Assembly (NCBI GenBank): GCA_037439785.1
Contig: JBBIVJ010000001.1
Location: 97,207-161,206 of the forward strand
Length of the DNA: 64,000 bases
Reading direction: 5' to 3'
Source: Verrucomicrobiales bacterium
GTDB lineage: Bacteria > Verrucomicrobiota > Verrucomicrobiia > Limisphaerales > J093
The notes beneath the pieces were generated by a model. The model made no database searches, was not told the DNA's origin, and worked only from the letters and a program-made list of their open reading frames with translations. Each line of letters starts with the position of its first letter. The stretch's first letter is position 1. The translations under genes and the position numbers were made by a program. This document shows, one piece after another, positions 7,676-63,420 of this stretch.

Positions 7676-8404
7676 ATGCACGTGCTGACCTTCCCCACCC
7701 CCGCCGCCGTCCACCAGGCCGCCGCCGACCTTCTGGCCGGCACGCTCACCGCCCCGGACACGCGCAACGTGGTGCTGGCCGGCGGCAACACCCCCCTGCC
7801 GGTGTACGCCGCGGTCGCCGCCCGCCGCCTCCCCCTGCGCCACCTCCGGCTGTTCGTGCTGGATGAGTACGTGGGTGTGCCGGCCGGGGACCCCCGCACC
7901 TGCTCGAACCTCCTCCGCCGCACCGCCGCCGAAGCCTGGGGGATGTCGCCGGACCGGTTCTTCGCGCTGGACCCCGACCCCGCACGGGCGGCCGACGCGG
8001 TGCGCGCCCACGAACAGGCCCTCGCCGCCGCGGGCGGCGCGGACCTGGCCGTGTTGGGGTTGGGCACCAACGGCCACCTTGGCTTCAACGAACCCGGCAC
8101 CCCGCCCGATGCCTCCGCACGCGTGCTCGGGCTCGAACCGGAGTCCGTCGAAGCCAACCGCCGCTGGTTCGGCGGCAAATTCGCGCCGGCCCGCGGCGCC
8201 ACCCTCGGCCTCGCCACCCTCCTGGCCGCACGCCGCGTCCTGGTGCTGGCCTGCGGTCCCGCCAAGGCCGCCGCCGTCGCCGCCATGGTGCGCGGGCCGC
8301 GCGACGGCCGCTGCCCCGCCGCCTGGTTGCAAATCCATCCCGACGCCTGGCTGTTCACCGACACCGCCGCCGCCAGCGCACTGGACCGCGGCAGTGGGAC
8401 ATAG
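7676..8404 (+). CDS. glucosamine-6-phosphate deaminase-like (NagB/Pgl superfamily) protein
   Basis: Start trimmed to the ATG at 7676 (MHVLTFPT). LGLGTNGHLGFNEPG resembles the NagB motif LGxGxNGHxxFNEP rather than the Pgl motif DGHTASLFP. Confidence 0.8.
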   Translation: MHVLTFPTPAAVHQAAADLLAGTLTAPDTRNVVLAGGNTPLPVYAAVAARRLPLRHLRLFVLDEYVGVPAGDPRTCSNLLRRTAAEAWGMSPDRFFALDPDPARAADAVRAHEQALAAAGGADLAVLGLGTNGHLGFNEPGTPPDASARVLGLEPESVEANRRWFGGKFAPARGATLGLATLLAARRVLVLACGPAKAAAVAAMVRGPRDGRCPAAWLQIHPDAWLFTDTAAASALDRGSGT

Positions 8405-8647
8405 GCCTCCGGCTTGCCTGCTCGCGACAGTGTGGTGCGGGCCTCCGGCCTGCATTTGCGCGCCCCCCCGGCCGCCGCCAGCGGGGGGAGCCTGACAGGC
8501 CGGTAATCAGGCGGGCGCCTCTCCGTTTCTTGCCGTGGCCGGGGTGGAACCCCGCGCCACGGCCCCAGCAATCAATGGGAATGCGCCCCCATCCCGCCCG
8601 GCGGTTCCGGCTTCCCGCCTCCGGCAGCGTTTGTCAGACTCGCGCCC

Positions 8648-9511
8648 ATGACACTGACCGAAACCCGCGCCCTGCTCGAGCGCCTCCGCCGGGGCGAGAC
8701 TTCGCTGGAGGCGGTAGTGCGCGCCCTCCAGGCCGCGCCGTTTGCTGACCTGGGCTTTGCGAACGTGGACACCCACCGCGCGCTGCGGCAGGGCTTCCCC
8801 GAGGTCATTTTCGGCGCCGGCAAAACCGCCGCCCAGGTGGTGGGCATCGCTGAGCGCCTGTTTCAACAGCATGGCCGCGTGCTGGTCACCCGCGCCACGC
8901 CCGAGCACGCCCGCGCCCTGCGCCGCCGGTTCCGCGCCGCCCGGCATCATGAGGTGGCGCGCTGCATCACGCTGGCCGAGACCCCCCTGCCGCCGCGGCC
9001 CGGCTACCTGGCCGTGCTCTGTGCCGGCACCAGCGACCTGCCCGTGGCCGAGGAGGCGGCGGTAACGGCCGAGTTCATGGGCAACCGCGTCGAGCGGCTC
9101 TTTGACGTGGGTGTGGCGGGCCTGCACCGGTTGCTGGGACGGCTGGAACTGGTCCAGGGCGCGCAGGTGCTGGTGGTGGTGGCCGGCATGGAAGGCGCCC
9201 TGCCCAGCGTGGTGGCCGGGCTGGTGTCGCGGCCGGTCATCGCCGTGCCCACCAGCATTGGTTATGGCGCCAGCTTCGGCGGCCTGGCGGCGCTGCTGGG
9301 GATGCTCAACAGTTGCGGCAGCGGGGTGACGGTGGTGAACATTGACAACGGCTTCGGCGCCGGCTACGCCGCCAGCCAGATCAACGCCCTGGCTGCCGAA
9401 ACCGCCGCCGGCCGGCAGTCCGCGCCCGCACCCACAGAAACTGCGCCTGCGCAGCCGGCAAGCCCTTCCTCCACCTCCCGCCCGGCCCGCCTCCGCCGCC
9501 GCGTCCGATGA
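8648..9511 (+). CDS. larB: nickel-pincer cofactor biosynthesis protein LarB (AIR-carboxylase-like)
   Basis: Contains [51 protein letters not shown] and PTSIGYGAS. Confidence 0.9.
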
Positions 9512-10836
9512 AGACGCTTTACCTCGACCTGTTCAGCGGCATCAGTGGCGACATGCTGGTGGGCGCCCTGCTGGACCTGGGCGCGGACCTCGCCCGGCTG
9601 GAACGCGACCTGGCCGGGCTGGACATCGGCGGCTACCACCTCCACGCCACGCGCCGGCCCAGGGCCGGCATCAGCGGCACCCGGTTCGAGGTGCACCTCG
9701 AAGCCGGGCCGGCCGCGGCCCACGCGACGCCGCCCGGCCACGACTCTTCCCACCCTCATGACCCGGCCGGGGCCGGCCACCCGGCGCATCCTGCCCCCGC
9801 CGGGCACGCGCACGCCGAACCCCCGGCCCACGCCCACGGCCGGGACTTCGCCACCATCCGGGACCTGCTGGCCGGCAGCGGGCTCTCCCCCTGGGTCAAG
9901 ACCACGGCCCACGCCGTGTTTCGCCGCATCGCCGAGGCCGAGGGGCAAATCCACCAGCAACCGCCGGAGCGCGTGCATTTCCACGAGGTCGGCGCGGTGG
10001 ATTCGATCGTGGATATCGTGGGCGCCTGCCTGGCGCTCGAACAACTGGGCCGGCCCCGCGTGCTGGCCTCGGCGGTCGTGGACGGCACCGGGTGGGTGCG
10101 CTGCGCCCACGGCCGGTTTCCTGTGCCCACGCCGGCCACGGTGGCCATCCTGGCCGCACGCGGCGTGACCGTCAGCCAATGCGCCGAGCCGCACGAGCTG
10201 GTAACGCCCACCGGCGCCGCCCTGCTGGCCGAGCTGGTCGAGTCGTTCGGCCCCCTGCACGAGTTCCGCCTCGAACGTGTCGGCTACGGGCTGGGCACCC
10301 GCGAGCTGTCGAGCCGACCCAACGTGTTGCGGGCCTTGTGGGGCGAGACCGCCGCGACCACCGCCGCCCCCCACGATTGGGAAACCGACACCGTGGCGGT
10401 GCTGGAAACCAACCTGGATGACGTCACCCCCGAACTGCTCGCCCACGCCGCCGCGCGGGCCCTCGCGGCGGGGGCGCTGGACGTCTTTCACGTGCCGGCG
10501 CAGATGAAAAAAGGCCGACCCGGCACGCTGTTTACCGTGCTCTGCCCGGAGGCGGAGGCCGACCGGCTGACCGGCCTGCTGCTCACCGAGACCAGCGCCT
10601 TCGGGGTGCGCCGCAGCCGGGCCGAGCGACGCAAGTTGCGGCGCGACGTCGTGACGGTCCCCACGCCTTTCGGGCCGGTGCAGGTGAAGCGCGGGTGGCT
10701 GGACGGGCGGGTGGTCCAGCGCGCGCCCGAGTTCGAGTCGTGCCGCCAGGTGGCCGAGCAGGCGGGCGTGCCGGTGAAGCAGGTGTTTGAAGCAGCGCTG
10801 GCGGCAGCCAACCTCGCCGCGCCCCCCGCCGAGTAA
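9508..10836 (+). CDS. larC: nickel-pincer cofactor nickel insertion protein LarC
   Basis: Begins [16 protein letters not shown]. Contains [16 protein letters not shown] and a His-rich tract [30 protein letters not shown]. The start overlaps the larB stop (ATGA). Confidence 0.9.
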
Positions 10837-11760: not shown

Positions 11761-11843
11761 CGGAGACGTCGCGCCCGGCATTTCGGGATTGCCTTCGTCA
11801 CAGCAGCGGCCTACCGTGAGGGCGCTCTTTGACACGCGCCGGT

Positions 11844-12007
11844 CGAGTGACCGGCGGAACACGCTCCGGCGTCCGGGAACCCCGTGTGAATCGGGGACGG
11901 TTGCGCCACTGTGACGGGCTACAAGCTCCCCAGGCCACTGCGACAGCGGGAAGGCGGGAGCGAGGTTTGAAGCCCGCGAGTCAGGATACCGGCCGGGGCG
12001 TGCTCGT
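11844..12007 (+). promoter_or_regulatory. cobalamin (B12) riboswitch
   Basis: Contains GGGAACCCCGTGTGAATCGGGGACGGTTGCGCCACTGTGA (11875-11914), GCCACTGcgacaGCGGGAAGGC (11934-11955) and a B12-box-like GAGTCAGGATACCGGCC (11978-11994). All three match conserved blocks of the cobalamin riboswitch consensus in the correct order and spacing. A possible P1 pairs cgag/ccggc (11844-11855) with gccgg/ctcg (11991-12007). A strong hairpin follows at 12010-12035. Confidence 0.8.
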
Positions 12008-12250
12008 CGGATGCCGCCCCGGGTGGGGTGGCATCGCTTCTCCGCAAAGAGAAGGATGAGGCCAGTTCGCCGGGCCGGCCCTGCCGGCTCGGTGGAATTT
12101 CACGGGAACGCCTTCCTTCGTGATTTGCCGGAGGAAGGCGTTGGCGTTTACGGGACGGCCGTCCCCGCCTACGCCGGCCCCGGTCTGGTCTCGCCGCACA
12201 CTCCAACCCGGCGGGGTGCTCCTGCGCGCCCCGCCACGCCGAGATCAGAC

Positions 12251-12955
12251 ATGAACGCTGCCACATACCTCGTTCGTTCCCTGACCGCCGCGGGTGCGGT
12301 GGTCGCCCTTGTCCCCTCCCAGTCCGCCGCCTCCTTCGACGACATCGCGTTCTGGGCCGGCACCGGCGCCCACCGCGCCGCCCTGGTGATTGACTGGCAG
12401 GACGCGCAGGCCCCGCCATCCCTGCTCTGGGGCTTTCGTTGGGACGGCACCGCCACCGGCCTGGACATGCTCACCGCAGTGATCCAGGCCGACCCCCGCC
12501 TCTTCGGCCACCTGGGCCAGTTCGGCTGGGGCACGGCCGTCTTCGGCCTTGGCTACGACTTGAACGCCAACGGCGTGTTTGCCGTGGCCCCGCCCCTGGC
12601 CTTCGACAGCGGCGGGCTGGCCGTGGACACCAATCCCGATGATGCCCGCGCGGCGGTGGATGACGGCGACCACTGGCGCGAGGGCTGGAACACCGGCTTC
12701 TGGGCCTACTACCTGAAGGGCTCCAGCGGCGAGGCCTGGGAGTCGGCCATGACCGGCGCTGCCGACCGCGTCCTGAGTGACGGCGCGTGGGACGGCTACA
12801 GCTTCGCCGCCGGCTTCGTCAGCGCGGCGCCGGGCGAACCGATGCCGGCGGCCGTGCCCGAGCCGGGCACCCTGGCCTTGCTGGCCCTGGGCGCTCTGGC
12901 GCTGGCCCGGCACTGGAAAGCGTCAAGCCGCCGCGATACTTCTGGCGTTTCATGA
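12251..12955 (+). CDS. PEP-CTERM-anchored secreted protein of unknown function, first gene after the B12 riboswitch
   Basis: Start trimmed to the ATG at 12251, giving signal peptide MNAATYLVRSLTAAGAVVALVPSQSAA. The C-terminus is VPEPGTLALLALGALALARHWKASSRR (PEP motif, TM helix, basic tail). Confidence 0.8.
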   Translation: MNAATYLVRSLTAAGAVVALVPSQSAASFDDIAFWAGTGAHRAALVIDWQDAQAPPSLLWGFRWDGTATGLDMLTAVIQADPRLFGHLGQFGWGTAVFGLGYDLNANGVFAVAPPLAFDSGGLAVDTNPDDARAAVDDGDHWREGWNTGFWAYYLKGSSGEAWESAMTGAADRVLSDGAWDGYSFAAGFVSAAPGEPMPAAVPEPGTLALLALGALALARHWKASSRRDTSGVS

Positions 12956-14544
12956 TCCGGGGGACGTTCAGCCGACTTACCCGAATCGTCCTCCGCGCCC
13001 GCTCGCGGCCGGTCCGGCGCCGGTTCTCCCGGTCCGGCCCGGTCGCGGGCGGTGCACTGTTGCTGGGTGCGCTGGTCGCGGGGCGCGCGGCGGCCCAAAC
13101 GACGCCGCCGGCCGGCGCCGCGTTTGCCGCGGAACTCGTCGCCGCCCAAGGTCCGTTCGGGCCGGCGCCGTATGACGACCCCGCCGCCGTGCTGGGCCCG
13201 CCGGCAACGGAGTTTTTCGACCCGCTGGGCGCATGGTCCGGGGGCTCACCGGTTCGGCGCGTGAAACTGGTCGAGCCGGCCTACCATTTGGACCCCACCC
13301 GGACCCACCCGCTCCTGCTCACCTTGGAGGAGGGCGCGGAAGTGGTGGTGCGGCTGGACCGGGAGGTCCGCGACGAGCCGGCGCATCCCTTCGGCGTGGA
13401 CCTGCTGGTGTTCGGCAACGCCGCCTTCACCGCCGCCGGCATGGTGACGGACGCGACCGATCTCAACACGCTGCGCCTGAGCGGCGGCGGTTTTTACGAG
13501 CCGCTCCAGGTCTCGGTCAGCCCCGGCTACACCGGCCGGCCGGGCGAAGACCCGGACCGCTGGGAAACCTGGGCCTGGTACCGCTACGAAACCGGGCCGT
13601 TCGCCGACACGCCCTTCCCCACCCAGGCCCACGCGTGGGACGCCGACCGTGCGGCCTGGACCGACCGGCTCATGGACTTCACCAAGCCGGCGAACCCCGC
13701 GCTGGTGGCATGGTTTGCGCCGGGTGCGAGGCGGGCATTGACCGCGGCCGAGGCCATCGCGCTTTACGATGGCGCCGGCGGCGGTACGGGCTTTGACCTG
13801 CGCAAGTCCGGGTTCGCGGCGGTTCGCTACGTGAAAATCACCGGCCGTCCGGGCTTCAGCGGCGGCGAGGTGGACGCGGTGGCGGCGGTCCGACCACTGC
13901 GTGTGGGCGACAGCCTTACGCTCGTGCCGGAGAACGTGCAGAACGGGCCGTTCGAGCAGGTGTTTCTGGGGATCGAGCCCTCAACGGCGCCGGCCTTGAA
14001 GGTGACGTGTCACGCGGTGGACGCGGCATTGCGGGTTGTCACCCGACCGCTGCCCGCGAACGAACTCCCCCCCGGCCTGCCCGGCACGGTGCTTCAGGCC
14101 CTGGCCCTGGACGCTCAACCCCTTTTCGCGGAAGCGCCGGCTTCTTTCGCGGCCGACCTGACGTTGTTCCTCCCCGCGGACGACGCCGGTGATGGCGGGA
14201 ATTTGGGTCTGTGGCAGCGGACCAGCGAGGGCTGGGCGCCGGCGCCGTTTGCCCATGACCCCGGCCAACACGCGGTGCTGCTGCGTGGCCTCACCGCGTT
14301 GACGGACCTGGTGTTGGTGCAGGTGCGGCCGCCGGCACTGGAACCGTCTGTCTCGGGCGACGGCCCGGGCGTGCGCTTTACGCCCTGGCCGGGCTGGCGA
14401 CATGTGCTGGAACGCAGCGAAGACCTGCGCACCTGGCGGTCCGTGGCCGAGATGACGCCGTCGGAGGCCGCGCCGGTCCGCTTGAGCGATTCGGCGCCGC
14501 CGGCGGCGGGGGCCTTTTATCGGTTGCGAATCGAGCGGCCATGA
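12952..14544 (+). CDS. secreted hypothetical protein (530 aa)
   Basis: The ATG at 12952 overlaps the upstream stop (ATGA). The N-terminus is basic then hydrophobic (GGALLLGALVAGRAAAQ). No domain recognised. Ends in ...AAGAFYRLRIERP. Confidence 0.75.
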   Translation: MIRGTFSRLTRIVLRARSRPVRRRFSRSGPVAGGALLLGALVAGRAAAQTTPPAGAAFAAELVAAQGPFGPAPYDDPAAVLGPPATEFFDPLGAWSGGSPVRRVKLVEPAYHLDPTRTHPLLLTLEEGAEVVVRLDREVRDEPAHPFGVDLLVFGNAAFTAAGMVTDATDLNTLRLSGGGFYEPLQVSVSPGYTGRPGEDPDRWETWAWYRYETGPFADTPFPTQAHAWDADRAAWTDRLMDFTKPANPALVAWFAPGARRALTAAEAIALYDGAGGGTGFDLRKSGFAAVRYVKITGRPGFSGGEVDAVAAVRPLRVGDSLTLVPENVQNGPFEQVFLGIEPSTAPALKVTCHAVDAALRVVTRPLPANELPPGLPGTVLQALALDAQPLFAEAPASFAADLTLFLPADDAGDGGNLGLWQRTSEGWAPAPFAHDPGQHAVLLRGLTALTDLVLVQVRPPALEPSVSGDGPGVRFTPWPGWRHVLERSEDLRTWRSVAEMTPSEAAPVRLSDSAPPAAGAFYRLRIERP

Positions 14545-15314
14545 ACGCGAAGACCCGCGCGCACCGGGCATGTTGGGGGTGGCGAAGCCGGGGCTTCACG
14601 CTGGTCGAGTTGCTGGTGGTGGTGGCGGTGCTGGCGGTGCTGGTGGGCCTGCTGCTGCCGGCGCTGGCCCGCTCGAAAACCTCCGCCCGCAGCGTCGCCT
14701 GCCTGAATCACCTCCGCCAGATGGCCCTGGCGGCGCAGATGTACACGGATGCCCACCGGCAGTTCTTCCCGCCGGCCTACGCCCAGGCGGTCGAGGACGG
14801 CGTCACGGTGCTGCGGGCCTGGGATTTCACCACCCGGCCGGGACCGACGCCGCAGGTCACCGCCGGTCTGCTCTGGGAAGGCCTGCCGCCGCAGCAAATC
14901 CAGCAATGCCCGGCCTATCGCGGTCCGGCCAACTGGCTGGCCGATCCGCACACCGGCTACAACTACAACACCAGCTACCTCGGCCACGGCCAGCTCGAGA
15001 GCATCCCCGAACCGGCGCGCCTCTCCGACGTCAAGCAACCCGCCGCCACCGCCCTGTTCGGCGACGGTGAGTACGCCAGCGGCGCGAACAAATTCATGCG
15101 CGCCCCCTGGCCCAACCCCGGCGACGCCGGCTTCCGCGGCCGCTGGGCCGGGACGCAAGGGTACCGGCACGGGGGACGAAGCAACGTGGCGTTCTGCGAC
15201 GGCCACGCCGCGGCCTGGCGCGCGCGCTTCGCGGAGAATCAGGACGGCGCCGACCGCGTGGCGGACGGGACCGGTTTCCTGTCGGCGGACAACTCCCTGT
15301 ACGACCTGGATTGA
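14541..15314 (+). CDS. prepilin-type N-terminal cleavage/methylation protein, DUF1559 (HX9DG) family
   Basis: Contains GFTLVELLVVVAVLAVLVGLLLPALARSK and C-terminal HGGRSNVAFCDGH (H-X9-DG). The ATG overlaps the upstream stop (ATGA). Confidence 0.9.
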   Translation: MNAKTRAHRACWGWRSRGFTLVELLVVVAVLAVLVGLLLPALARSKTSARSVACLNHLRQMALAAQMYTDAHRQFFPPAYAQAVEDGVTVLRAWDFTTRPGPTPQVTAGLLWEGLPPQQIQQCPAYRGPANWLADPHTGYNYNTSYLGHGQLESIPEPARLSDVKQPAATALFGDGEYASGANKFMRAPWPNPGDAGFRGRWAGTQGYRHGGRSNVAFCDGHAAAWRARFAENQDGADRVADGTGFLSADNSLYDLD

Positions 15315-15347: not shown

Positions 15348-18300
15348 TCAGCGCAGGCGCATCCAGAAGCGGTAGAACCGGGTGGCGCCCGCGGGCCGTG
15401 GCAGTTCGACCTCGAACTCGTCGTTGCCCAGCGGGGTGGGGCCGATGCCGGTGGGGGCAAAGCCGCTGCTCAGGGTGTCCGCCGCCTCCACCACGAACTG
15501 GAAGTGGCCGGCGTAGGCGGCGGGGAACTTCCACTTCACGCCCAGCTTGCCGGCCGGTTTGAGCACCAGCTCGAGCGCCGGCGGCTGCAGCACCACCACG
15601 GGCCCGGTGCCCTTGATGGCTTTGTCATTGGGATCGGTGCCGTCGAGGAACTCCTGCAGGTTCGAGTAGCCGTCCCCGTCCTTGTCGCCGTGGGCGCCCT
15701 CGGCCAGGCCGCCGAAGAAGGCGCACTCGAAGTTGTCGGGCAGCAGGTCGCCGTCCGCGTCCACGACCGGGAGGGCGGGGATGGCGAGCACAATGGCGGA
15801 GAGGACTTCAAGGCCGCGGTCGGCGCAGTCGCCGGCGTCCCCATCGGCGTAGCCCACGACCTGGATCGTCGTGCCCGGCACCAGCTCGAAGTCGGGGAAG
15901 AGGTAGTTGCCCCCCTCGGCGAACCAGAGGCTCCAGGTCTGGGTACCATCGCTGAGCACCGTGCAGCCCTCGGGCATGGGATCGGGCAGGACGGTCAGGT
16001 GGAGCGTCACCTTGGGCCGGCTGAAATCGAGAGCCATCAACTCGGCGACGGCGTTCGCGGCGGCGAGGCGCTGCGCGGGGGTGAGCGTGGTGGCGGCCAG
16101 GTAATTCGAGTGCAGGGTGCCGGCGAACAGGAAATGGCGGAGCACTTCCACCGGCAGGGGGTACTGGCCGGGCGCGGCGTTGTTCGAGAGGCTGCTGATG
16201 CGGTACACGTCATCGGCAAGGGCGCGCAAGGCGGCGACGTTGGCGCCAGCGCCACCCACCGCGGCCAGCAGGCCCTGATGCACCGCGACCAGGCGGTGGG
16301 CCGGCTGGCCGGCCTGCTCCCGCTCGAGGGCGAGCAGGGCCGCACTGCCGGGGAAGTGCCGGTCCACATCGCCCGGTCGGGCGGGGAACAGGGTAAGCTG
16401 GTTGGTGGGCGGCAGGCCGCGCGCCTGCAGCAGCAGCTCGAACTTCCGCTCGGTGAGCAGGGCCACCAGCGTGTCCAACGGGCCGGGGGCGGTGATGACG
16501 CGGGTGCGCGGGCGGGCGGCGGCGGCGGCCTGGGAGGCGGCCCGCCAGGCGGCGGCCTGGGAGGCGGGCGTGCCCGGGCCGGGCGTGAAGTTCACCTCCA
16601 GTCCGGCGTCCTGCGAGGGGATGGGCTCAAGGGCGAGCAGTTCGCGGCCGAGGTTCTGGTCCGCCGCCGCGGTCTGGATGGGGAAGTGGGGATCGGTGGC
16701 CAGGGCCAGCAGGCGCTGGCGGTCGTCCACGCCGAGGTTGCGAAGGCGGGCGGCGGGGTTGAGCACGCCGGGCACGCCCAGGTTGGCGGTGAGGGCGGAG
16801 CCGAGGAGGTCGCCGGCCAGGTTGAAGGCGCGCACGGTCACCCCGGTGCGGGCCAGGGCCGGGCCGGGCACGGTACCGTCCAGCGGGCGCGGGGTAACGT
16901 ACAGGTCGAAGCCCGAGCCATCGTCCAGGCGCGGGCCGGCCGGGTGGCTGGCGGCGGCGTAGGGGTTGGAGCCGGCCACCAGTTCCTCGAGGTCATTGAA
17001 ACCGTCGCCGTCGGCGTCCTTGCCGCTGCTGACCGGGTCGAGTCCGGCCCCCAGCTCGAGGTAGTCGGGTGTGCCGTTGTTGTTGGCGTCCAGACCCACC
17101 TCGACGAAGTCCGGCACGCCGTCGTGGTCCGAGTCCAGTGTCCATTGGTCGGCCGGGAAGGTGTAGGTGGCGTGGCGGACGGGAGACTTGCGGGTGCTGC
17201 CGCCACCCTGCTGGGCGAAGTAGCTGACGGTGGTGTCGAAATAGACCGGGAAGGGCGCGGTGTAGGTGGACCAGGCGGCCACGGGGTTGGTGCGGTAAAA
17301 GATCGTGGCCCCGGCGAGCGAGGCGGTGAGGGTGATCTGGACCGCGGCGGGTTGCGGGCCGGGTGGCGGGCTGATGGTTACGTCGGCCACTTCATCGCCG
17401 CTGGGGGGCAGGAAGCTGAAGACCGAGATGGCCTCGTGGTACTGGTTGGCCAGACCGAAGGCCGCCGGCGGGGTGACGCGGGCCACGGTGCGGGGGGTGG
17501 GATTGCGCAGGCCCTGGGTGGTGCCCTGGAAGGTCTCCACCCGCACAGAGATTTGCGGCGGCGCCCCGCTGATCTGCGGCTGGGAGGTCCAATCCCCCGC
17601 CGCCAGCCGCTGCACCAGATTCGGCGCGGGCGCGACAAACGGCTCGAACTGGAACAGGAAGACGTTCGCCCCGCCGGCATGGCGGTTGAGCGTGTCCAGC
17701 GCGCCGCTCTCGGCCAGGGTGTACGGTCCGCTGCCCGCGCTGGTGTACCGGTGGAAACGCGCCGGGCGCCCCTCCGGACCGGAGAAGGCCACGAAGCCGT
17801 CCGCCGTGGCCACGGCGCCGCCGAAGCGTTCGCCCGCCGGCGCGGCCAGGGCCTGGAAGAGCGTGGGCGCGCTCGCGCCGTCGAAGTTCAGGATCACCGC
17901 CGTGGCGCCGCCGTGGCGCAGGGCCAGCAGCCGCCCGCCGCTGGCGGTGGGGATCACGAACAGCGCCTCGGCGTTGAAGCCCAGCGGGAAGGTCGAGCCG
18001 CCGCTCAGATTGAAGGAGCCCGGGGTGGGCTCGGCAACACGGCGATGGTGGATGCTGGCGGACCCCGCCGTGTGAAAGACGAAGTCGAAAAGGGCCGAGG
18101 CGGAGAAGCGGTGATTCAGCACCTGCGCGACATCGGGCACCCCGGCGATGGTGGCGACGTTGACCGGTGCTCCGGTGGCGAGGCTGACCAGGCGGAACTC
18201 ATCGCCCGCGCCGGCCGTGGCGACCAGGAGGCCGAGCACGTCGGCCACGCCGGTCATGAGCTGCGCGGGCTGGGCGCGCAGGACTTCGGCGGCCTCGGCG

Positions 18301-18848
18301 GCCTCGCCCAGGATGGAAAAGGCCGCGCCGGTCGAGCGCACCAGGGCGCGGCGGCGCGGGGCGGGCGGGTTGTTCAGGGCGGTGAGGATGTAGAGGTCGT
18401 GGTGGGCGGTGTTGCCGGCGCCGCCGATGTCCAGGGCCGCGACGTGGGCCGGGCCGATGCCGCCCATGTACACCTCGCGCGGCACGCCGTTGACCAGCGG
18501 ATCGTCGCAGGGGATGACCAGCACGCGGTTGGCGTCCGGACCGGCCAGCACCAGCGCGTCGCGCGCGGTGTCCAGCACCCGGCCGGCACTGACGCCGGTG
18601 ACACCGGTGACGCCCCCCGGTCGGGAAGCGGTCCATTGATGGCCGCCGCCCGCCTGGCCGTAGCCGATGAGGTAGGCGCCGGATTCGAGGTCCACCACGG
18701 CGGCGTCGGGCCGGCCGTCGCCGTTGAAGTCGGCGCTCAAGTAGGCGGAACCGGCGGAGAGAACCGGGTAAGCGGGTTGCGCGAGCAGCGCCGGCGACGC
18801 CAGCACGGCGGCGATCATCACCGTGGACAGGAAACGCAGCGTTCTCAT
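15348..18848 (-). CDS. giant secreted protein C (1166 aa): FG-GAP/VCBS-like, chitobiase-C-like and thrombospondin-type-3 Ca-binding repeats
   Basis: Start trimmed to the ATG at 18848 (MRTLRFLSTVMIAAVLASPALLAQP), which overlaps the stop of the upstream gene (ATGA at 18848-18845). Motifs are DFNGDGRPDAAVVD, ATIFYRTNPVAAWSTYTAPF, DSDHDGVPDFVE..DADGDGFNDLEE and DKDGDGYSNLQEFLDGTDPND. Ends in ...ATRFYRFWMRLR. Confidence 0.85.
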   Translation of the reverse strand: MRTLRFLSTVMIAAVLASPALLAQPAYPVLSAGSAYLSADFNGDGRPDAAVVDLESGAYLIGYGQAGGGHQWTASRPGGVTGVTGVSAGRVLDTARDALVLAGPDANRVLVIPCDDPLVNGVPREVYMGGIGPAHVAALDIGGAGNTAHHDLYILTALNNPPAPRRRALVRSTGAAFSILGEAAEAAEVLRAQPAQLMTGVADVLGLLVATAGAGDEFRLVSLATGAPVNVATIAGVPDVAQVLNHRFSASALFDFVFHTAGSASIHHRRVAEPTPGSFNLSGGSTFPLGFNAEALFVIPTASGGRLLALRHGGATAVILNFDGASAPTLFQALAAPAGERFGGAVATADGFVAFSGPEGRPARFHRYTSAGSGPYTLAESGALDTLNRHAGGANVFLFQFEPFVAPAPNLVQRLAAGDWTSQPQISGAPPQISVRVETFQGTTQGLRNPTPRTVARVTPPAAFGLANQYHEAISVFSFLPPSGDEVADVTISPPPGPQPAAVQITLTASLAGATIFYRTNPVAAWSTYTAPFPVYFDTTVSYFAQQGGGSTRKSPVRHATYTFPADQWTLDSDHDGVPDFVEVGLDANNNGTPDYLELGAGLDPVSSGKDADGDGFNDLEELVAGSNPYAAASHPAGPRLDDGSGFDLYVTPRPLDGTVPGPALARTGVTVRAFNLAGDLLGSALTANLGVPGVLNPAARLRNLGVDDRQRLLALATDPHFPIQTAAADQNLGRELLALEPIPSQDAGLEVNFTPGPGTPASQAAAWRAASQAAAAARPRTRVITAPGPLDTLVALLTERKFELLLQARGLPPTNQLTLFPARPGDVDRHFPGSAALLALEREQAGQPAHRLVAVHQGLLAAVGGAGANVAALRALADDVYRISSLSNNAAPGQYPLPVEVLRHFLFAGTLHSNYLAATTLTPAQRLAAANAVAELMALDFSRPKVTLHLTVLPDPMPEGCTVLSDGTQTWSLWFAEGGNYLFPDFELVPGTTIQVVGYADGDAGDCADRGLEVLSAIVLAIPALPVVDADGDLLPDNFECAFFGGLAEGAHGDKDGDGYSNLQEFLDGTDPNDKAIKGTGPVVVLQPPALELVLKPAGKLGVKWKFPAAYAGHFQFVVEAADTLSSGFAPTGIGPTPLGNDEFEVELPRPAGATRFYRFWMRLR

Positions 18849-21800
18849 GGCGTGGCCTCCACGACGTTGGTGGGGATGACCTCCTTGATCTCGCCATCCG
18901 GCCCGAGCCGGACGATGAGATAGACATACCGCGCGCCGGTGACCACAGGCTGAGTGTCCACGAGCCATAGGGCCCCGGGCAGTTCTCCGCCGCCAACAAT
19001 GACTCCATCAGTCACCCGGATGAACGGATCATGGATCACGGTCACCGGTCCGCGCTGCGGGTCGTTGGCAAACGCATGGGCGATCTCCTCCATCAGCGGC
19101 GTGACCTGGATCAGGTCGTAACCAACCTGCGGGTACTCCGGCGAAACGGCCTGGACGCGATAGACCACCGCCGGGAAGAGCTTTTCACCGAACTTGTTGG
19201 TGTACAGGTGGAACATCGGGTCGCGATGCAGGCGCAGGCTGGGCAGGTTCACCTCGGGCCGTTCCTTGGGCACGTTGACCAGGTCGCGGCGCGGCACCTC
19301 GCCAATGCGGATGGCCAGACCGGGGAAAATGTTGTCCGGCATCCGCGCGGCCTGGAGCGAGGGATGGAAGAAGTTCAGGTCCGGCAGCGGGCGCGCCGGC
19401 CAGGGCACCTCCGGACCGACCAGCGGCGGCACGTGCCAGCTCAGGGACTCGGCGTTGCTGTCCGGCCCGGGCACGCCATCGGGGCCGACGGCGGCCACCA
19501 TCACGGTGTATTCCTGGCCAAGGGCGATGTTGACGGTGACCTCGAACTGCGCGCCGTTGCCGAAGGCCGGGCCGACCGGCGGGGTGCGGTACAGGAAGAA
19601 GACGTTGGTGCGCGGTTCGTTGCCGACGAGGTACTGCTTGACCCGATTGGTGATCAGGGTGCCGAGGTCCGGCGAGGGATTGGGCGGCATGAAGCCGAGG
19701 GCGTTGGCGATGGAGACCTCGAAGCGGCTCACGCCGTAGGGCGGGCAGAACCAGCGCACCTTCATCTTCGGGCTGGACTCGTCCCCGACCGGCTCCAGGG
19801 GCGCCAGCAGGGGCACGGCCATCGGCATCTGGATTTCGATGCACTCGTCAATCTGCACCAGCGGGCTGGCGTTGCCGTGCTCGTCGAAGAGCTGGGCAAA
19901 GTAGCAGATGACCGCGGCGTTGGCCGGCATGTCCGGGTCCTGCACGGTGATCTGGGACACGTCGTCGAAGTTCGCCGGCCCCTGCTTGATGAGGGTGAGC
20001 GGGCCGTTGTCCACGCGGCGGTAAAGGCGGTACTCCTTGGTGCCGGGGGTGAGGGTGATGACAATGTCCGGGCCGACCACGCCGCCGTCCGGACCGTTGG
20101 GCTGCGGGTTGTGGGCGCCGCGGCAGGGGCCGAACTGGCCGGTGGCGGCGCTCCGGCGCGGGATTTTGCGGCAATCCACGCGCACGGCGAAGGGCACGCG
20201 GCGGATGGTGGTGGTCTTGGGGTCGCGGATGGTGGTAACGAAGACAAAGTCGGAAGTCTGGCCCTGGTCGTCCCCAGCCCGGCACCAGAACAGGATTTCC
20301 CCCTCCTGGACCTGGACGCGCGGGACGGTCCAGCGCCACACCAGCAACGGCTCCTGGGGCGGGAAATAAACGCGGCCCAGGAAGTTCGATTCCGTCAGGT
20401 CGCGGAAGTAGAACTCGGCCCAGCGGACCTCCGGCCGCTCGCGGCGCACCTCGAATTCGTAGTAGGCCAGGGCCGGGTCCTGGTTGCGGCCATCCGGGTC
20501 GTTGAAATCCACCGGGTCGCGCGGCACCACGGCGTAGGCGCAGCACATCACATCAATGCGCCCGCCGGGACCGTCCGGCCCGGTGCGGTCGCGCAACACG
20601 CCATAGACCGGCCGGCTGTGGGGGGAAAAGTTGCCGCCGCCGCAGGCACCGTTGTCCACCGAGCGGATGGTGTACCAGAAGGTCTTCGAGTAGTCGGCCG
20701 GCGCGGTGGGCGAGCCGGCGCCGTCGTCGAGGTAGCTGTACAGCGTTTGGCCCGGCACGTGAGGGAAGGGGCCGGCGATGCGGTTGAGCAGGGGGTTGCC
20801 GCCGGCGGCCTGGACGTCGTCCGGCGCGGCCCAGCGGTACACGTAATAGCCGGTGACGGTGTCGGTGGTGTTGGTGTTGGGGCGCCAGAGCACCTTGAGC
20901 TTCTGCTTCGCCGCGCCGCCGGTATAGGTGTAGTCGTTTTCGACCCGCACGGCGAGGGGGGCGTCCGGCGGCAGGCGGTCGCACACGGTCACCAGCAGGC
21001 CGGGGGAAGGGCTCCAGTCGCGGCCGAGCACGTCCCGGGAGGTGACGAAGTAGTAGAACTGCGCGCCGTTCTCGAAGGGGACGCCCCCGGGCTGGTAGCG
21101 GCCGTTGTCGTCGGCCAGAAAGGCGGTCCTGGGGTCGAGCGCAAAGTTGGCGACATCCGCGGCGGAGAAGTCCCGGGTCTTGAGCACGGGCAGTTCGTTG
21201 ATGCGCTTGACGGCGGGGTGGGACTGAGCGGCCTGCCGCAGCACGTCGGCCGATGGCGGGGTGGTGTGCCAGCCCTGGGCCTCGGCGTGGGCCTTGGTCA
21301 CGCGATAGACGTTGAAGCCGTGGTTGAGCAAGGTGAGCCGGCGCAGGGCGTCCGGCGCGGCCCAGCGGAGCTTGACGTTGAGGTCGCCGCGCGGGTCGGT
21401 CTCGGGCACCTGGACCACCGGGCCGGGACGGGGCAGGGCCACGGGGACGCCGGCGGTGACGGTGACGCGGCCGACCACGCCCAGGTCGCGGTCGTTGGCC
21501 TTGTCGTACTCGCGAATCTCGAAGGTGGTCTGGCCGGCGGGGATGACCTCGGCGTGGGCGTAGCCGAGGCAGAAGTTCACGCCCGGATGCAGCCGACCCA
21601 GCAGGACCAGGTTGTTGAGCCGGGCCGGGTCCTCGAGACTGCCGCGGATGGCGGCGGAGAGTTTCACCTCCAGCGGGCCGGCCGGCGGCTGGAGGGCGGC
21701 GAAGAGGTTGTTGACCCGCACTTCGAGCCGGGGGAGGTCCTCGCCGATCGAGACCGCGCGGTTGAGGAGGGCGCGGATGACCGGCGGCTCGGTCTGCAGG

Positions 21801-27618: not shown

Positions 27619-30018
27619 GTGAAACATCCCTGGCTCTGGCTGCTGGCGGGCTTGGCGGCCTCCGTGTTGGTGTTCGTGGGCTGTCGCACCGCCGGTCCGG
27701 CCCCGGTGGCAACCCCGGGCGTGAAGGCGTTCCACCCGACGAAGCTGGCGGAAATGGATACCGCCATCCAACAGGCCATAGCCGAAGGCCGGCTCCCCGG
27801 CGGGGTGTTGTGGCTGGAGCGTGAAGGCGCGGTGTACCACCGGGCTTACGGCCGCCGGGCGGTGCTCCCCGCTCCCGAGCCGATGACCGGAGATACGATT
27901 TTCGATCTGGCCTCGCTGACCAAGGTGGTGGCCTGCACACCGGCGGTAATGTGGCTGGTTGAGCGGGGCCGGTTGGGGCTGGACGATCCGGTGTGCCGTT
28001 ACCTGCCCGAGTTCACGGGCGAAGGCCGGGAAGCCGTGACGGTGCGGCATCTGCTCACCCACACCTCCGGGTTGCGGCCGGACATCAGCCTGAAAACGGA
28101 CTGGTCAGGCTACGAAGCGGGCTTGCGGTTGTGTCTGGTCGAGCGGCTCACGGCGCGTCCGGGGGAGCGGTTTATTTACAGCGACACCGGCCCGATCCTG
28201 CTGGGGGAGGTGGTGCGGCGGGTGACGGGCCGGCGCTTGGATGAACTGGTCACCTCCGAGATTTTCCGCCCCCTGGGGATGAAGGACACCGGCTTCAATC
28301 CTCCGCCCGCCCTGCGGGGCCGCATCGCCCCCACCGAGGTCGAGAACGGCGTGCCGCTGCGCGGGGTGGTGCACGACCCGCGCGCGCGCCGCCTGGGCGG
28401 CGTGGCGGGCCACGCGGGGCTGTTCTCCACGGCGGCGGACCTGGCGCGGTTTGCGCGGATGATGCTCCACGGCGGAACGCTCGACGGGGTGCGCCTCTTC
28501 CGGCCCGAAACGGTGCAGCTCATGACCTCGGTCCAGACCCCGCCGGGGCTGCCGCGCCGCGGCCTGGGCTGGGACATTGACTCGGCCTACGCCGGCCCGC
28601 GGGGCGAGGTGTTTCCGCAGGGGTCGTACGGCCACACTGGCTGGACGGGCACCTCGCTGTGGATTGACCCGTTTTCACGCACCTTCGTCATCTTCCTCTC
28701 CAACCGAAACCATCCGGACGAGCGGGGCAGCGTCAGCGCGCTGCGCCGCCAGCTCGGCACCCTGGCCGCCCAGGCGGTGCGGGATTTCAACTTCAGCTAC
28801 GTGCCCGGCGCCCTGGCGCCCGCGGCTGAGCCGGGCGCGTCCGCTGTCTCCACCCCCGCCGCGGGGCCCGCTCGCCGCGGTTCGGCGGCGGGGACAACGG
28901 TGCTCAACGGCATTGACGTGCTGGTCCGCCAGCAGTTCGCGCCGTTGCGCGGCCTGCGGGTGGGGTTGATCACCAACCACACCGGCCAGGACCGGGAACG
29001 GCGCTCCACTCTGGACCTGCTGCACGCGGCGCCGGAGGTGACCCTGGTGGCGGTGTTCAGTCCCGAGCACGGCCTGCGCGGCACGGCGGACGAAAAGGTG
29101 GGGGACAGCGTGGACGAGCGCACCGGCCTGCCGGTGTACAGCTTGTACGGCGAGACGCGCGCCCCCCGGCCCGAGCACCTGGCCGGGCTGGACGCGCTGG
29201 TGTTTGACATCCAGGACATCGGCTGCCGGTTTTACACGTACATCTCGACGATGGGCCTGGCGATGGAGGCCGCCGCCCGGGCCGGCAAGAAGTTCTTTGT
29301 GCTGGACCGGATCAACCCCATCACCGGCGCGGTGGTGGAAGGACCGGTGCACGCAGGGGCCTCGACGTTTGTCGCCTTCCACGCCCTGCCGTTGCGGCAC
29401 GGCATGACGGTGGGCGAGCTGGCGCGGCTGTTCAACGCGGAACGCGGCTGGAACTGTGACCTCACGGTCATCCCGCTGGAGGGGTGGTCGCGCCGCCAGT
29501 GGGCGGATGAAACCGGCCTGCCCTGGACCCACCCCTCCCCCAACATGCGCAGCCTGACCGCCGCCACGCTCTACCCGGGGGTGGGACTGCTGGAAAGTGC
29601 GGTCTCCGTGGGCCGCGGCACCGACACACCCTTCGAGGTGGTCGGCGCGCCGTATGTGGAGGACGTGCGGTTCGCCGCCGAACTGCGCCGGGCCGGCCTG
29701 CCGGGGGTGGGCTTTGTGCCCATCCGCTTCACCCCCCGCGCCAGCACCTTCAAGGACCAGCCCTGCGGCGGGGTGCACCTGCTGGTCACCGACCGCCGGG
29801 CCCTGCGGCCGGTGGACCTGGGGCTGACCCTGGCCCTGACCCTGCAGCGGCTGTATCCGGGGCAGTTCGCCCTCGAAAAAATGCGGCCGCTGCTGACCGA
29901 CGCCGCCACCCTGGAGGCCCTCCGCGCAGGCCGGTCGCTTGAGGCCATCAGGCGTGCCTGGGTGCCGGCGCTGGCCGAATTCGAGCGCCGCCGTGCCCCG
30001 CATCTGCTTTACCGCTGA
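27619..30018 (+). CDS. lipoprotein fusing a beta-lactamase-fold serine hydrolase with a DUF1343 (NamZ-like exo-muramidase) domain
   Basis: Lipobox is LVFVGC. The SxxK motif is [10 protein letters not shown]. The C-terminal half contains [28 protein letters not shown] and [18 protein letters not shown], typical of DUF1343/YbbC/NamZ. Confidence 0.85.
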
Positions 30019-30911
30019 AGGGCCGGCAAGGGGGGCGGGACCACCGGCACGCTGGCGCGTTCGGCGATCCAGCGCCGGTCGCGGTTGGCGTACAGCCAGA
30101 GGGTGAGGTGATTGGGCAGCCAGTTGGTGCGGGCCAGGGCCACCGTTTCCTCCTCGACCCAGCGGTGGCTCTCGACATGGCCATCGGCAAAGGCCACTCC
30201 GCCTTGGCCCAGATGTGAGGCCGCGGGCAGGTGCATGAAGCAGCCCTCCCACACCCCCACGCCCACCAGGTAGGCGGGCATGCAGACATGGCCGGGGGCC
30301 GTGTCCATGAAGCTGAGCAGCTCGGCGGGCCGCGCCCGGGCCAGGTCGGCGCTGGTGCGGAAGGTCACGTGGGTGCCGCTGTTGAACGAACCCAGCCCTT
30401 CCAGCCAGCCGAGGTAGGCGTTGAGGGCGTAGCTGCGAACGTGCGGGAAAAGGCGTCCCTCCAGTTCAACCCGGCCGCGGTCCGAGGGGCACTTGTAAAG
30501 TCCGGCCGAGGGGAGGTAAGGCGCGAAGGCGGCCAGCCCCGGATCGGTCAGGTAGCCGCGGTTGGTGAAGGCTTCCGGATGGAGGTGTTCCTGCCCCGAG
30601 ACCCAGAGCTTCTCGCCGCCCAGGAGGTTGGGGGTGCCGTAGCCATTCAAGGCAAGGGCCTCCCGGTGGTCGGAAGGGTACAGGGCCCAGGCGAGGTTCA
30701 ATTGCCGCAGATTGCTCAGGCAGGTCAGCCGCCGCGCCCGTTCCCGGGCCTGGGACAGCGCCGGCAACAACAGGCCCAGCAGCAGCACGAGGATGGCCAC
30801 CACTACCAGCACCTCGATGAGGGTGAACGCCCGCCATGCCCCCCCTGGCTGCCCGCGCGGGCAGCCACCGGGCCCCGGCAGAGCCGGGCTGGGTGGACGG
30901 GCCGGTTTCAT
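30009..30911 (-). CDS. prepilin-type N-terminal cleavage/methylation protein, DUF1559-like
   Basis: Start trimmed to the ATG at 30911 (MKPARPP...). Contains [30 protein letters not shown] and C-terminal [15 protein letters not shown]. Confidence 0.85.
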
Positions 30912-35767: not shown

Positions 35768-35842
35768 GCGCGGTTAGCTCAGTGGTAGAGCACTTCCTTG
35801 ACACGGAAGGGGTCAGAGGTTCGAGTCCTCTATCGCGCACCA
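35768..35842 (+). tRNA. tRNA-Val (anticodon GAC), CCA encoded
   Basis: 75 nt. Acceptor stem GCGCGGT/ATCGCGC has one G-U pair. D arm is TAGCTCAGTGGTAGAGCA. Anticodon stem-loop is CTTCC-TTGACAC-GGAAG. T arm is AGAGGTTCGAGTCCTCT. Discriminator is A, followed by CCA. Confidence 0.9.
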
Positions 35843-62745: not shown

Positions 62746-63420
62746 TCAGCGTGTGCGGATGTACGGCTCTTCTTCCCAGTTGGTGGCGGGCCAGAGGAAG
62801 CTGTTGACCGCGCCATCATGGCGGAGACAGAGGTCCTTGATGTTGGTCTTCTTGCTGAAGCTTTTTTGCGGGTCGTAGCGCCCTTCGGTCCAGCCGCTGA
62901 ACAGATGCCGATGCCAGGGGCAGGCCGCCACGATGAAGCGGTTGCTCCAGCGGGCGAGCTGGTCTTCGAGCCACCTTTTGCCCTCGGGCGTGGTTTGCTG
63001 CCAGGGCCCCAGGTGGTAGGCGTAACTGGTGGTGAACTCGCCGAAGTATTCCCAGCCCAGATCAATCGGGATGCGCCCGCGGGTGCGGTCCGCCAGGCAG
63101 ATGAAGCTGTTGGTGTTCTCGACGTAGCCCTGCTCCAGGTAAGGCCGGTTGCCGCCGGGGTAGCCGAAGGTCTTGTGGGTGGGGTTGACCAGGTACAACG
63201 GCGGGCGGTCCAGGTGGTCCTGCCGGTACATCATGATGCCCAGGCCTATCTGGCGCAGATTGTTCGTGCAATGCATCCGCCGGGCGTTTTCCTTGGCCCG
63301 GCCCAGCAGGGGCAGAAGCATCCCCGCCAGGATCGCGATGATGGCAATCACCACCAGCAGCTCGATGAGAGAAAAGGCCGCTGGTGGGCGGTCGAGCCTC
63401 TGATGCCAGCCCGGTTTCAT
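62746..63420 (-). CDS. prepilin-type N-terminal cleavage/methylation protein, DUF1559-like
   Basis: Contains [30 protein letters not shown]...[12 protein letters not shown]. Confidence 0.85.

Follow-up and report, generated by a model that had tools for sequence, protein, structure and literature searches.

A stretch of 64,000 nucleotides from a Verrucomicrobiales bacterium (contig JBBIVJ010000001.1; hereafter the window, to which the analysis of this genome was confined) contains a cobalamin riboswitch followed by three overlapping open reading frames (ORFs), here called ORF1, ORF2 and ORF3. We find that this riboswitch and its genes form a cassette that is a conserved and regular member of the B12 regulon in the Verrucomicrobiota, the Planctomycetota and the Armatimonadota, with about 150 related loci, and we consider it probable that the cassette is a B12-repressed operon, of a Verrucomicrobiota type, for the acquisition of corrinoids. 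The original prediction, made from the letters of the window, had spoken of a non-canonical operon; the arrangement is indeed unusual when set against the textbook regulons, but in these phyla it is a regular one.

Several elements of this picture are already known: the RF00174 riboswitch family, the riboswitch-controlled capture of B12 at the cell surface by the Bacteroides proteins BtuG, BtuH, BtuJ and BtuK, and a prediction from 2007 that the bacterial members of the transcobalamin-like SLBB clade, those of planctomycetes included, scavenge B12 (Burroughs et al., PMC1796856). Compared with the literature searched, the cassette itself, the domain of ORF2, the DUF1559 subfamily of the B12 regulon and the consistent lack of a linked TonB-dependent receptor appear to be new; no description of the cassette was found there, as the word "undescribed" in the original prediction had anticipated. 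B12 is a keystone shared micronutrient, and its acquisition by Verrucomicrobiota, Planctomycetota and Armatimonadota is essentially undescribed in that literature. The cassette offers a testable candidate system of three proteins, and its analysis defines both a large family of candidate B12 binders without annotation (1410 clusters at 50% identity, E<=1e-10) and a second unannotated partner domain with 552 homologues. It also raises the question of whether large cofactors can enter these cells without a TonB-dependent receptor, and we would give a minority chance to a categorically new uptake route. The DUF1559 proteins are the largest paralogue group of Planctopirus limnophila, with 68 copies, two of them essential, and their function is unknown (PMC10632474). 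The literature searched gave no function for DUF1559, and a riboswitch that names the ligand supplies the first concrete functional lead.

The riboswitch and the operon

A cmscan search of the whole window against Rfam placed a cobalamin riboswitch (RF00174) at 11823-12011 (+), with a score of 79.5 bits, well above the gathering score of 31.5 (E 6.1e-18). The match is complete, covering model positions 1-189 of 189 and including the peripheral extension of the aptamer, and it was recovered again in a permissive Rfam scan. Such a riboswitch had been proposed at 11844-12007, a slightly smaller extent, and the three blocks on which that proposal was based (GGGAA..GUGUGAAUC, GCCACUG..GGGAAGGC and the B12 box AGUCAGGAUACCGGCC) sit at conserved positions of the RF00174 model alignment. 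The same alignment defines the P5 stem (G11899-G11900 / C11906-C11907) and its loop L5, UUGCG (11901-11905). This is the sole riboswitch in the window, the other Rfam match above gathering being a tRNA at 35768-35839.

On the same strand, 3' of the aptamer, lie ORF1 (12251-12955, 234 aa), ORF2 (12952-14544, 530 aa) and ORF3 (14541-15314, 257 aa). The ATGA overlaps at 12952 and 14541 that had been reported between them are present in the sequence, and the three genes are translationally coupled. As the next gene (15348-18968) is convergent, the operon consists of these three genes. A terminator combined with an independent promoter between 12007 and 12251 had been named in the original prediction as the arrangement that would uncouple the genes from the leader. 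The promoter scan, in an organism whose promoters may differ from the sigma-70-like type, revealed no sigma-70-like promoter between aptamer and ORF1, but a terminator-like hairpin is present at 12106-12156; a simple scan that is blind to the large-loop hairpin at 12106-12146 detected no canonical terminator in that interval.

Linkage of the riboswitch to the cassette

Related loci were collected from both ends of the cassette. The profile A2, built on homologues of ORF1, yielded 509 relatives in contigs representing one genome per species, and the top 80 loci were analysed; the profile A4, built on ORF3 orthologues, gave 80 metagenome loci, of which the 40 with at least 3 kb of upstream sequence were assessed. 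Rfam identified RF00174 upstream, on the same strand, in nine of nine phylogenetically spread ORF1-seeded loci, and an nhmmer profile built from the aptamers of those nine matched 73 of the 80. When the seven misses were submitted to Rfam, RF00174 was found in L028, a 5'-truncated RF00174 at the contig start in L035 and an AdoCbl-II riboswitch (RF01689) in L050, so that a B12 riboswitch precedes the genes in 76 of the 80 loci overall; three more (L010, L019 and L046) are truncated by the end of a contig, which leaves L075 as the one locus without a riboswitch. From the other end, a riboswitch was present in 39 of the 40 ORF3-seeded loci, and all ten of the nhmmer-positive loci that were sampled proved by Rfam to be RF00174 at 60-87 bits. 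The complete set of riboswitch, ORF1 domain, ORF2 core and ORF3 is found in 34 of the 40; four have the riboswitch, the ORF2 core and ORF3; one (L109) has a riboswitch directly before ORF3 alone; and one (L083) has no riboswitch and carries a BtuF-like gene right after ORF3. The original prediction had proposed a search of relatives for the same cassette behind B12 riboswitches, and whether it is viewed from the ORF1 or from the ORF3 end, the link lies far beyond chance.

Some individual loci deserve mention in their own right. In L050, from a Fimbriimonadaceae genome, the AdoCbl-II riboswitch RF01689 (4421-4479) replaces RF00174 before a pilin-ORF1 pair, and the same cargo genes therefore occur under two B12 riboswitch classes. 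The minimal arrangements are those of L109 (5659-6732, riboswitch and ORF3-type pilin) and L083 (5557-7618, ORF3-type pilin and BtuF-like gene). A Verrucomicrobiota-type cassette and leader also occur in metagenome-assembled genomes named Bifidobacterium, Pseudomonadales, Bifidobacteriaceae and Alcaligenaceae (L010, L032, L044 and L046), which is probably the result of binning contamination.

The three proteins

ORF1 consists of a Sec signal peptide, a domain of about 170 residues that resembles the beta domain of transcobalamin (an SLBB-type beta-grasp) and a PEP-CTERM anchor. The original prediction had recognized a PEP-CTERM protein here, and PF07589 (27.8 bits vs 20.7, residues 201-220) is its only Pfam match, accompanied by TIGR02595 in NCBIfam (21.1 vs 16); the signal peptide, the C-terminal PEP motif, the transmembrane helix and the basic tail expected of such proteins are all there. 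An AlphaFold2 model calculated with the family alignment reached a predicted local distance difference test score (pLDDT) of 89.9, and its top 19 Foldseek matches in the PDB were all transcobalamin, intrinsic factor, haptocorrin or the DUF4430 protein 3U7Z; beyond these the E-values exceeded 2. The template modelling (TM) scores to 5NP4 and 5NO0 were 0.74-0.76, the target-normalised value being 0.74, with a probability of 1.00, for 5NP4, the isolated transcobalamin beta domain with cyanocobalamin. In the model a helix (70-80) is followed by a beta-hairpin (strands 84-91 and 94-102), and a hairpin in this position is the defining feature of the transcobalamin-like SLBB clade (PMC1796856). From the modelled fold we infer that ORF1 is an extracytoplasmic corrinoid binder.

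Judged by its sequences, the ORF1 family is separate from DUF4430. Among 52 multidomain relatives scanned, 17 carry a type IX secretion system (T9SS) tail, 13 PEP-CTERM, nine DUF5074, two a dockerin and five a DUF4430, which may overlap the ORF1-like domain or be separate from it. The ORF1 domain is thus predicted to be displayed through each phylum's own surface-sorting system, be it PEP-CTERM, dockerin or T9SS tail. Identity with BtuJ/DUF4465 (PF14717) was considered and set aside, as there was neither a Pfam match nor a Foldseek match to 9I2L at E<=10. The label PF28005, flagged on a single homologue and absent from the Pfam release used and from the literature searched, does not describe the family.

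ORF2 has the signal peptide expected from its earlier description as a secreted protein of 530 residues, followed by a beta-rich core of about 260 residues (aa ~55-320) and by two to three beta-sandwich domains resembling the immunoglobulin or fibronectin type III (Ig/FN3) folds. Neither Pfam nor NCBIfam recognized a domain in it, and Pfam recognized none in 23 of its relatives; the AlphaFold2 model has a pLDDT of 83. A profile search returned 552 homologues, those listed being hypothetical or unnamed proteins without Pfam domains, and the core has been conserved across the Verrucomicrobiota, the Armatimonadota and the Planctomycetota. An N-terminal ORF1 domain is fused to 52 of the 120 ORF2 homologues listed, and these fusions are without PEP-CTERM; on the strength of this pattern we argue that ORF1 and ORF2 act together. 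Attempts to derive a function for ORF2 from its fold or from distant homology yielded generic beta-sandwich matches and these 552 homologues. Nor does ORF2 appear to be BtuJ/DUF4465, for which there was no Pfam match, 9I2L being absent among the 50 listed of 311 Foldseek matches. A C-terminal beta-sandwich with an F-Y-R-L/F motif is common to ORF2 (14400-14544, "AFYRLRIERP") and to its convergent neighbour of 1206 residues (15348-15500 (-), "RFYRFWMRLR"), and endings of this type recur in the relatives of ORF2; it may be a sorting or surface module.

ORF3 joins a prepilin-type N-terminus to a C-terminal DUF1559/H-X9-DG module. The class III signal RSRG|FTLVELL has Gly-1, Phe+1 and Glu+5 and leads into a hydrophobic helix; the N_methyl models PF07963 (29.9 bits vs 21.2) and TIGR02532 (26.9 vs 16.3) both match, as do DUF1559 (PF07596, 35.5 bits vs 23.3, over model positions 6-45 of 268 only) and H-X9-DG (TIGR04294, 20.4 vs 19, residues 208-223). 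The earlier designation of a DUF1559 pseudopilin-like protein is borne out by these matches, and by its signatures ORF3 is a true prepilin of a divergent DUF1559 subfamily dedicated to the B12-riboswitch operon. Against solved type IV pilins and GspG the profile of its orthologues scored E-values down to 5e-11, in the N-terminal helix only. The C-terminal module is 58-67% identical among Verrucomicrobiota-type loci, and is more conserved than ORF2. Two other prepilins of the window, at ~30660-30833 (-) and ~63193-63411 (-), share with ORF3 only the N-terminal helix. ORF3 may serve for display or retraction on a pseudopilus, as an adaptor for cargo of the type II secretion system, or as a periplasmic receptor anchored in the inner membrane.

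Gene order and linked transport genes

All Verrucomicrobiota-type loci (L001-L023, apart from L022, which is of Armatimonadota type) have the order riboswitch-ORF1-ORF2-ORF3. The order is riboswitch-ORF3-ORF2-ORF1 in the Armatimonadota-type loci L022, L028 and L049 and in the unassigned L078; three Phycisphaerae-type loci (L024-L026) encode ORF1 and ORF2 as a single polypeptide; and in Pirellulales a DUF1559 prepilin comes first after the riboswitch, then a dockerin-bearing ORF1 domain and, in some loci, a gene resembling ORF2. Gene order has been shuffled between phyla and the association has been retained. By blastp, 59 of the 73 non-Bacteroidota loci have a pilin-like gene beside the ORF1 homologue, and by clustering 64 of the 80 loci have one. 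Directly after ORF3, a btuF-like Peripla_BP_2 gene is found in L007, L010, L013, L018, L020 and L023; the last of these continues with btuD, btuC (FecCD) and later cobT, and in L078 btuF, btuD and btuC come after the cassette. No TonB-dependent receptor was detected within 6-8 kb in any of the roughly 150 non-Bacteroidota loci (blastp, and a BtuB profile at E<1e-3), and clustering of the 80 ORF1-seeded loci revealed no linked secretin or ATPase genes in any of them. The window itself, in which the original prediction had seen no TonB-dependent receptor, contains no BtuB- or BtuG-like sequence by tblastn.

The seven Bacteroidota loci have no pilin, and six of them have a TonB-dependent receptor. 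In these six the riboswitch is followed by BtuB, BtuG (DUF5074), a PKD protein and then the ORF1-like domain, which is standalone in one locus and fused to a DUF5074 propeller in five (L067, at 7866-10148, and L064, L068, L074 and L077). In L067, where these features were tested, the fusion has a T9SS tail and its propeller matches BtuK1 (9S6C). Such a fusion resembles BtuGH with a different N-terminal domain and is seemingly undescribed. The combination of an N-terminal ORF1-like domain with a DUF5074 propeller in Flavobacterium had led us to suspect that ORF1 was a BtuH domain; this was rejected, as neither a profile, nor a single sequence, nor Foldseek (E<=10) gave a match to 7BIZ. BtuH resembles a globular domain of the alginate-lyase type and not transcobalamin (PMC8941943). 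The architecture of these ORF1 relatives only mimics that of BtuGH.

The leader

The interval of about 240 nucleotides between the aptamer and ORF1 is structured and not a loose spacer. It contains three invariant blocks, namely block A (12037-12065), the core of a hairpin (12111-12140) and block C (12182-12195), in loci whose proteins are only about 60% identical. Such invariance is unusually strong for an expression platform and may point to additional contacts, either tertiary or with proteins; the permissive Rfam scan detected no RNA family in this leader besides RF00174. In eight loci analysed with RNAalifold, a stable hairpin (GAUGCCGCCCC/GGGGUGGCAUC; 12010-12035, +; predicted -23.6 kcal/mol) lies directly 3' of P1, and several of its pairs have changed on both sides with pairing kept. 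Block A (+) is 29 nucleotides long and comprises a hairpin, CUUCUC/GAGAAG, with the loop CGCAAA (12043-12048), and then GAUGAGGCCAG. Besides the window, 19 loci contain it with at most two mismatches (17 among L001-L023, and also L032 and L044), and L013 and L018 have it with a 1-nucleotide loop insertion. Kissing loops between L5 and L13 operate in other cobalamin riboswitches. Here the loop sequence CGCAA is complementary to UUGCG of the aptamer L5, and in L054 and L055, where L5 reads UCGCG and the loop CGCGU, the change of U to C is matched by one of A to G, which amounts to one compensatory change. The block A hairpin could accordingly be the P13/L13 element that forms a kissing loop with L5.

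Further downstream, at 12106-12156 (+), a 14-bp hairpin (stem 12107-12120 / 12129-12142, 8-nucleotide loop) is followed by a U-rich tail, GGCGUUUAC in the window and UGUGUUUCC in relatives. Its core is invariant in the eight aligned loci, with a predicted energy of -24.4 kcal/mol, and hairpin and tail together look like an intrinsic terminator. Block C (GGUCUGGUCUCGCC, +) can pair with GAGGCCAG of block A, and in the RNAalifold consensus this long-range helix (columns 52-62 with 194-204, in all eight sequences) encloses the terminator-like hairpin. Two other ideas about the leader were dropped: an antiterminator formed by block A with the 5' arm of the terminator was unsupported by partition-function folding, and the coding of a leader peptide that would start with the ATG at 12056 is ruled out by indels between the conserved blocks that are not multiples of three.

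Proposed mechanism and alternatives

In the mechanism that we favour, adenosylcobalamin, when plentiful in the cell, would bind the RF00174 aptamer, L5 (UUGCG) would then probably kiss the CGCAA loop of the invariant hairpin downstream, and expression would be switched off, in all likelihood at the strong hairpin with its U-rich tract (12106-12156). Scarcity of B12 would allow the three coupled genes to be expressed. ORF1 would be exported, anchored through PEP-CTERM and able to capture corrinoids with its transcobalamin-beta-like beta-grasp domain; ORF2 would be its obligate partner, in one complex or, as in many relatives, in one polypeptide; and ORF3 would serve as a dedicated pilin-like DUF1559 subunit that connects the ORF1-ORF2 complex with the envelope and hands the ligand on inwards. 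Uptake would finally be accomplished by an ABC importer of the BtuFCD type, presumably encoded elsewhere in this genome and, in some relatives, inside the operon. We prefer a role in uptake because ORF1 matches the fold of B12 carriers, because it is fused to ORF2 in many relatives, because its domain also occurs in btuB-btuG operons and because some loci have extensions into btuFCD and cobT. The original prediction of a B12-scavenging or B12-responsive surface system draws support from the riboswitch, its conserved linkage, the ORF1 fold and these same extensions; the binding and uptake of B12 are its predicted part.

A number of observations weigh against corrinoid acquisition by this route. 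The Foldseek E-value of the ORF1 fold match is modest (1e-2), Pfam gave no DUF4430 (PF14478) match on ORF1 at E<=0.1, and the family profile A2 had no sequence match in the PDB at E<=1. ORF1 is missing from five of the 39 riboswitch-bearing ORF3-seeded loci, so that it may not be the essential binder, and the ORF2 core or ORF3 could bind the corrinoid instead. For ORF2 there is no convincing fold relative in the PDB, its Foldseek matches being generic beta-sandwiches of low TM. The btuFCD link is seen in roughly 15 of the approximately 150 loci and not in this window, and a btuB gene may lie elsewhere in the genome, of which 64 kb were examined. As for the control mechanism, thermodynamic folding of the leader disclosed no antiterminator. 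Folding of the leader and a comparison of homologous leaders for covariation had been proposed earlier; covariation was found in the hairpin after P1 and, as one compensatory change, between L5 and its complementary loop, but the pairs of the long-range helix between blocks A and C never vary and so lend it no such support.

Other explanations can be set against these data. It is quite possible, although we do not favour it, that ORF1 to ORF3, as functional equivalents of BtuG, BtuH, BtuJ and BtuK of Bacteroides, capture B12 at the surface and hand it to an ordinary TonB-dependent BtuB encoded elsewhere in the genome, with ORF3 as no more than a membrane-anchored or secreted helper. The ORF1 domain is after all an accessory component of the Bacteroidota btuB-btuG operons, multi-protein extracellular relays of such a kind exist in Bacteroides (PMC13616437) and our view of this genome is one of 64 kb; however, a receptor of this type, present in six of seven Bacteroidota loci, was found within 6-8 kb in none of the approximately 150 others, and the transport genes that are linked to the cassette are btuF, btuD and btuC rather than btuB. 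Alternatively, ORF3 might be a cargo-specific pseudopilin of type II secretion whose sole task is to take ORF1 and ORF2 through the outer membrane, without any part in import. The likeness of its N-terminus to GspG and type IV pilins, its exported partners and the absence of an anchor in the fused ORF1-ORF2 forms would suit such an adaptor, which we nonetheless think unlikely: L109 has a riboswitch before ORF3, and neither ORF1 nor ORF2 was found upstream there; btuF comes after ORF3 in L083; and no locus has linked secretin or ATPase genes.

Two further explanations deny the cassette any role in import or any control by the riboswitch. Proteins of adhesion and of the matrix typically show PEP-CTERM, dockerin and pilin-like features, and the operon could remodel the cell surface when B12 is scarce, for example for attachment to B12 producers; but the only fold relatives of ORF1 are B12 carriers and in several lineages the genes are embedded with btuB and btuG or with btuFCD and cobT, which makes a purely adhesive function very improbable. 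That the leader match is a relic or a chance resemblance, the genes being expressed independently, might be argued from the gap of 240 nucleotides between aptamer and ORF1 and from a promoter scan not suited to this type of organism. We give this notion next to no credence in view of the score of 79.5 bits, the near-universal linkage in two independent sets of loci and the invariant structured blocks within the gap, one of which presents a loop complementary to L5.

A bolder version of corrinoid uptake would make ORF3 the core of a TonB-independent route across the outer membrane, in which it would assemble into, or cap, a pseudopilus resembling those of type II secretion or type IV pili. This pseudopilus would carry the ORF1-ORF2 complex, or bind the corrinoid itself, and bring it to the periplasm for BtuFCD, in the manner of DNA uptake by competence pseudopili and ComEA. 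We regard this version as rather doubtful. If it were true, B12 would be the first ligand assigned to any DUF1559 protein, and the very large DUF1559 expansions of Planctomycetota and Verrucomicrobiota might be repertoires of substrate-specific uptake pilins.

Comparison with known systems

The closest parallel is the Btu relay of Bacteroides thetaiotaomicron (BtuB-BtuG, BtuH, BtuJ/DUF4465 and BtuK; PMC13616437, PMC12751083), also a riboswitch-repressed operon that places several exported or surface proteins for corrinoid capture ahead of BtuFCD, capture being predicted in our case. The btuB-btuG operons of Bacteroidota contain the ORF1 domain itself, as a fusion with a BtuK-like DUF5074 propeller. 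In contrast to that relay, the loci of the Planctomycetes-Verrucomicrobia-Chlamydiae (PVC) group and the Armatimonadota have neither BtuB nor BtuG, their pilin-like protein and ORF2 domain are without a Bacteroides counterpart, and they use PEP-CTERM or dockerin anchors where Bacteroides uses lipidation. The folds differ as well, ORF1 being a beta-grasp, BtuG and BtuK propellers, BtuJ a jelly roll and BtuH a fold of its own, and Foldseek connected ORF1 with neither 7BIZ nor 9I2L.

With the beta domain of transcobalamin, intrinsic factor and haptocorrin, and with DUF4430 (PMC1796856), ORF1 shares its fold, including the hairpin after the helix, and, by prediction, a secreted or surface location. 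It differs in its large insertions (152 alignment columns, gaps included, as opposed to a domain of 106 residues), in the lack of an alpha-toroid partner domain and in having ORF2 and a pilin, rather than CbiO and CbiQ, as partners in the operon.

In competence, ComEA and a retractile pseudopilus pull the ligand through the outer membrane. An SLBB domain is part of ComEA (PMC1796856). ORF3 resembles type IV pilins, the pseudopilins of type II secretion and the competence pseudopilus in its class III signal and its hydrophobic N-terminal helix, but its DUF1559/H-X9-DG module has no solved relative, and the cassette, known here from its genes alone, has no linked secretin, ATPase or platform genes.

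The cobalamin riboswitches of E. coli btuB and of the env8 type use an L5-L13 kissing loop. The riboswitch of the cassette has an aptamer of the same family and likewise a downstream hairpin whose loop is complementary to L5. Unlike theirs, its block A hairpin does not include the ribosome-binding site, that of ORF1 lying about 190 nucleotides further on, and its platform of about 240 nucleotides has a terminator-like hairpin and blocks that are invariant over wide divergence.

Neighbouring genes

The immediate neighbours of the cassette are unrelated to B12, being LarB and LarC upstream and large secreted proteins downstream, and a Pfam scan of ten large ORFs of the window, which was not exhaustive for it, detected no B12 genes among them. 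Just upstream, 8648-10836 (+) encodes a LarB-like protein of the AIR carboxylase family and a LarC-like nickel insertion protein (E 7e-135), apparently a unit for the biosynthesis of the nickel-pincer cofactor that is separate from the B12 cassette. At 27619-30018 (+), an ORF of 799 residues combines a beta-lactamase-family domain with the N- and C-terminal domains of the exo-beta-N-acetylmuramidase NamZ.

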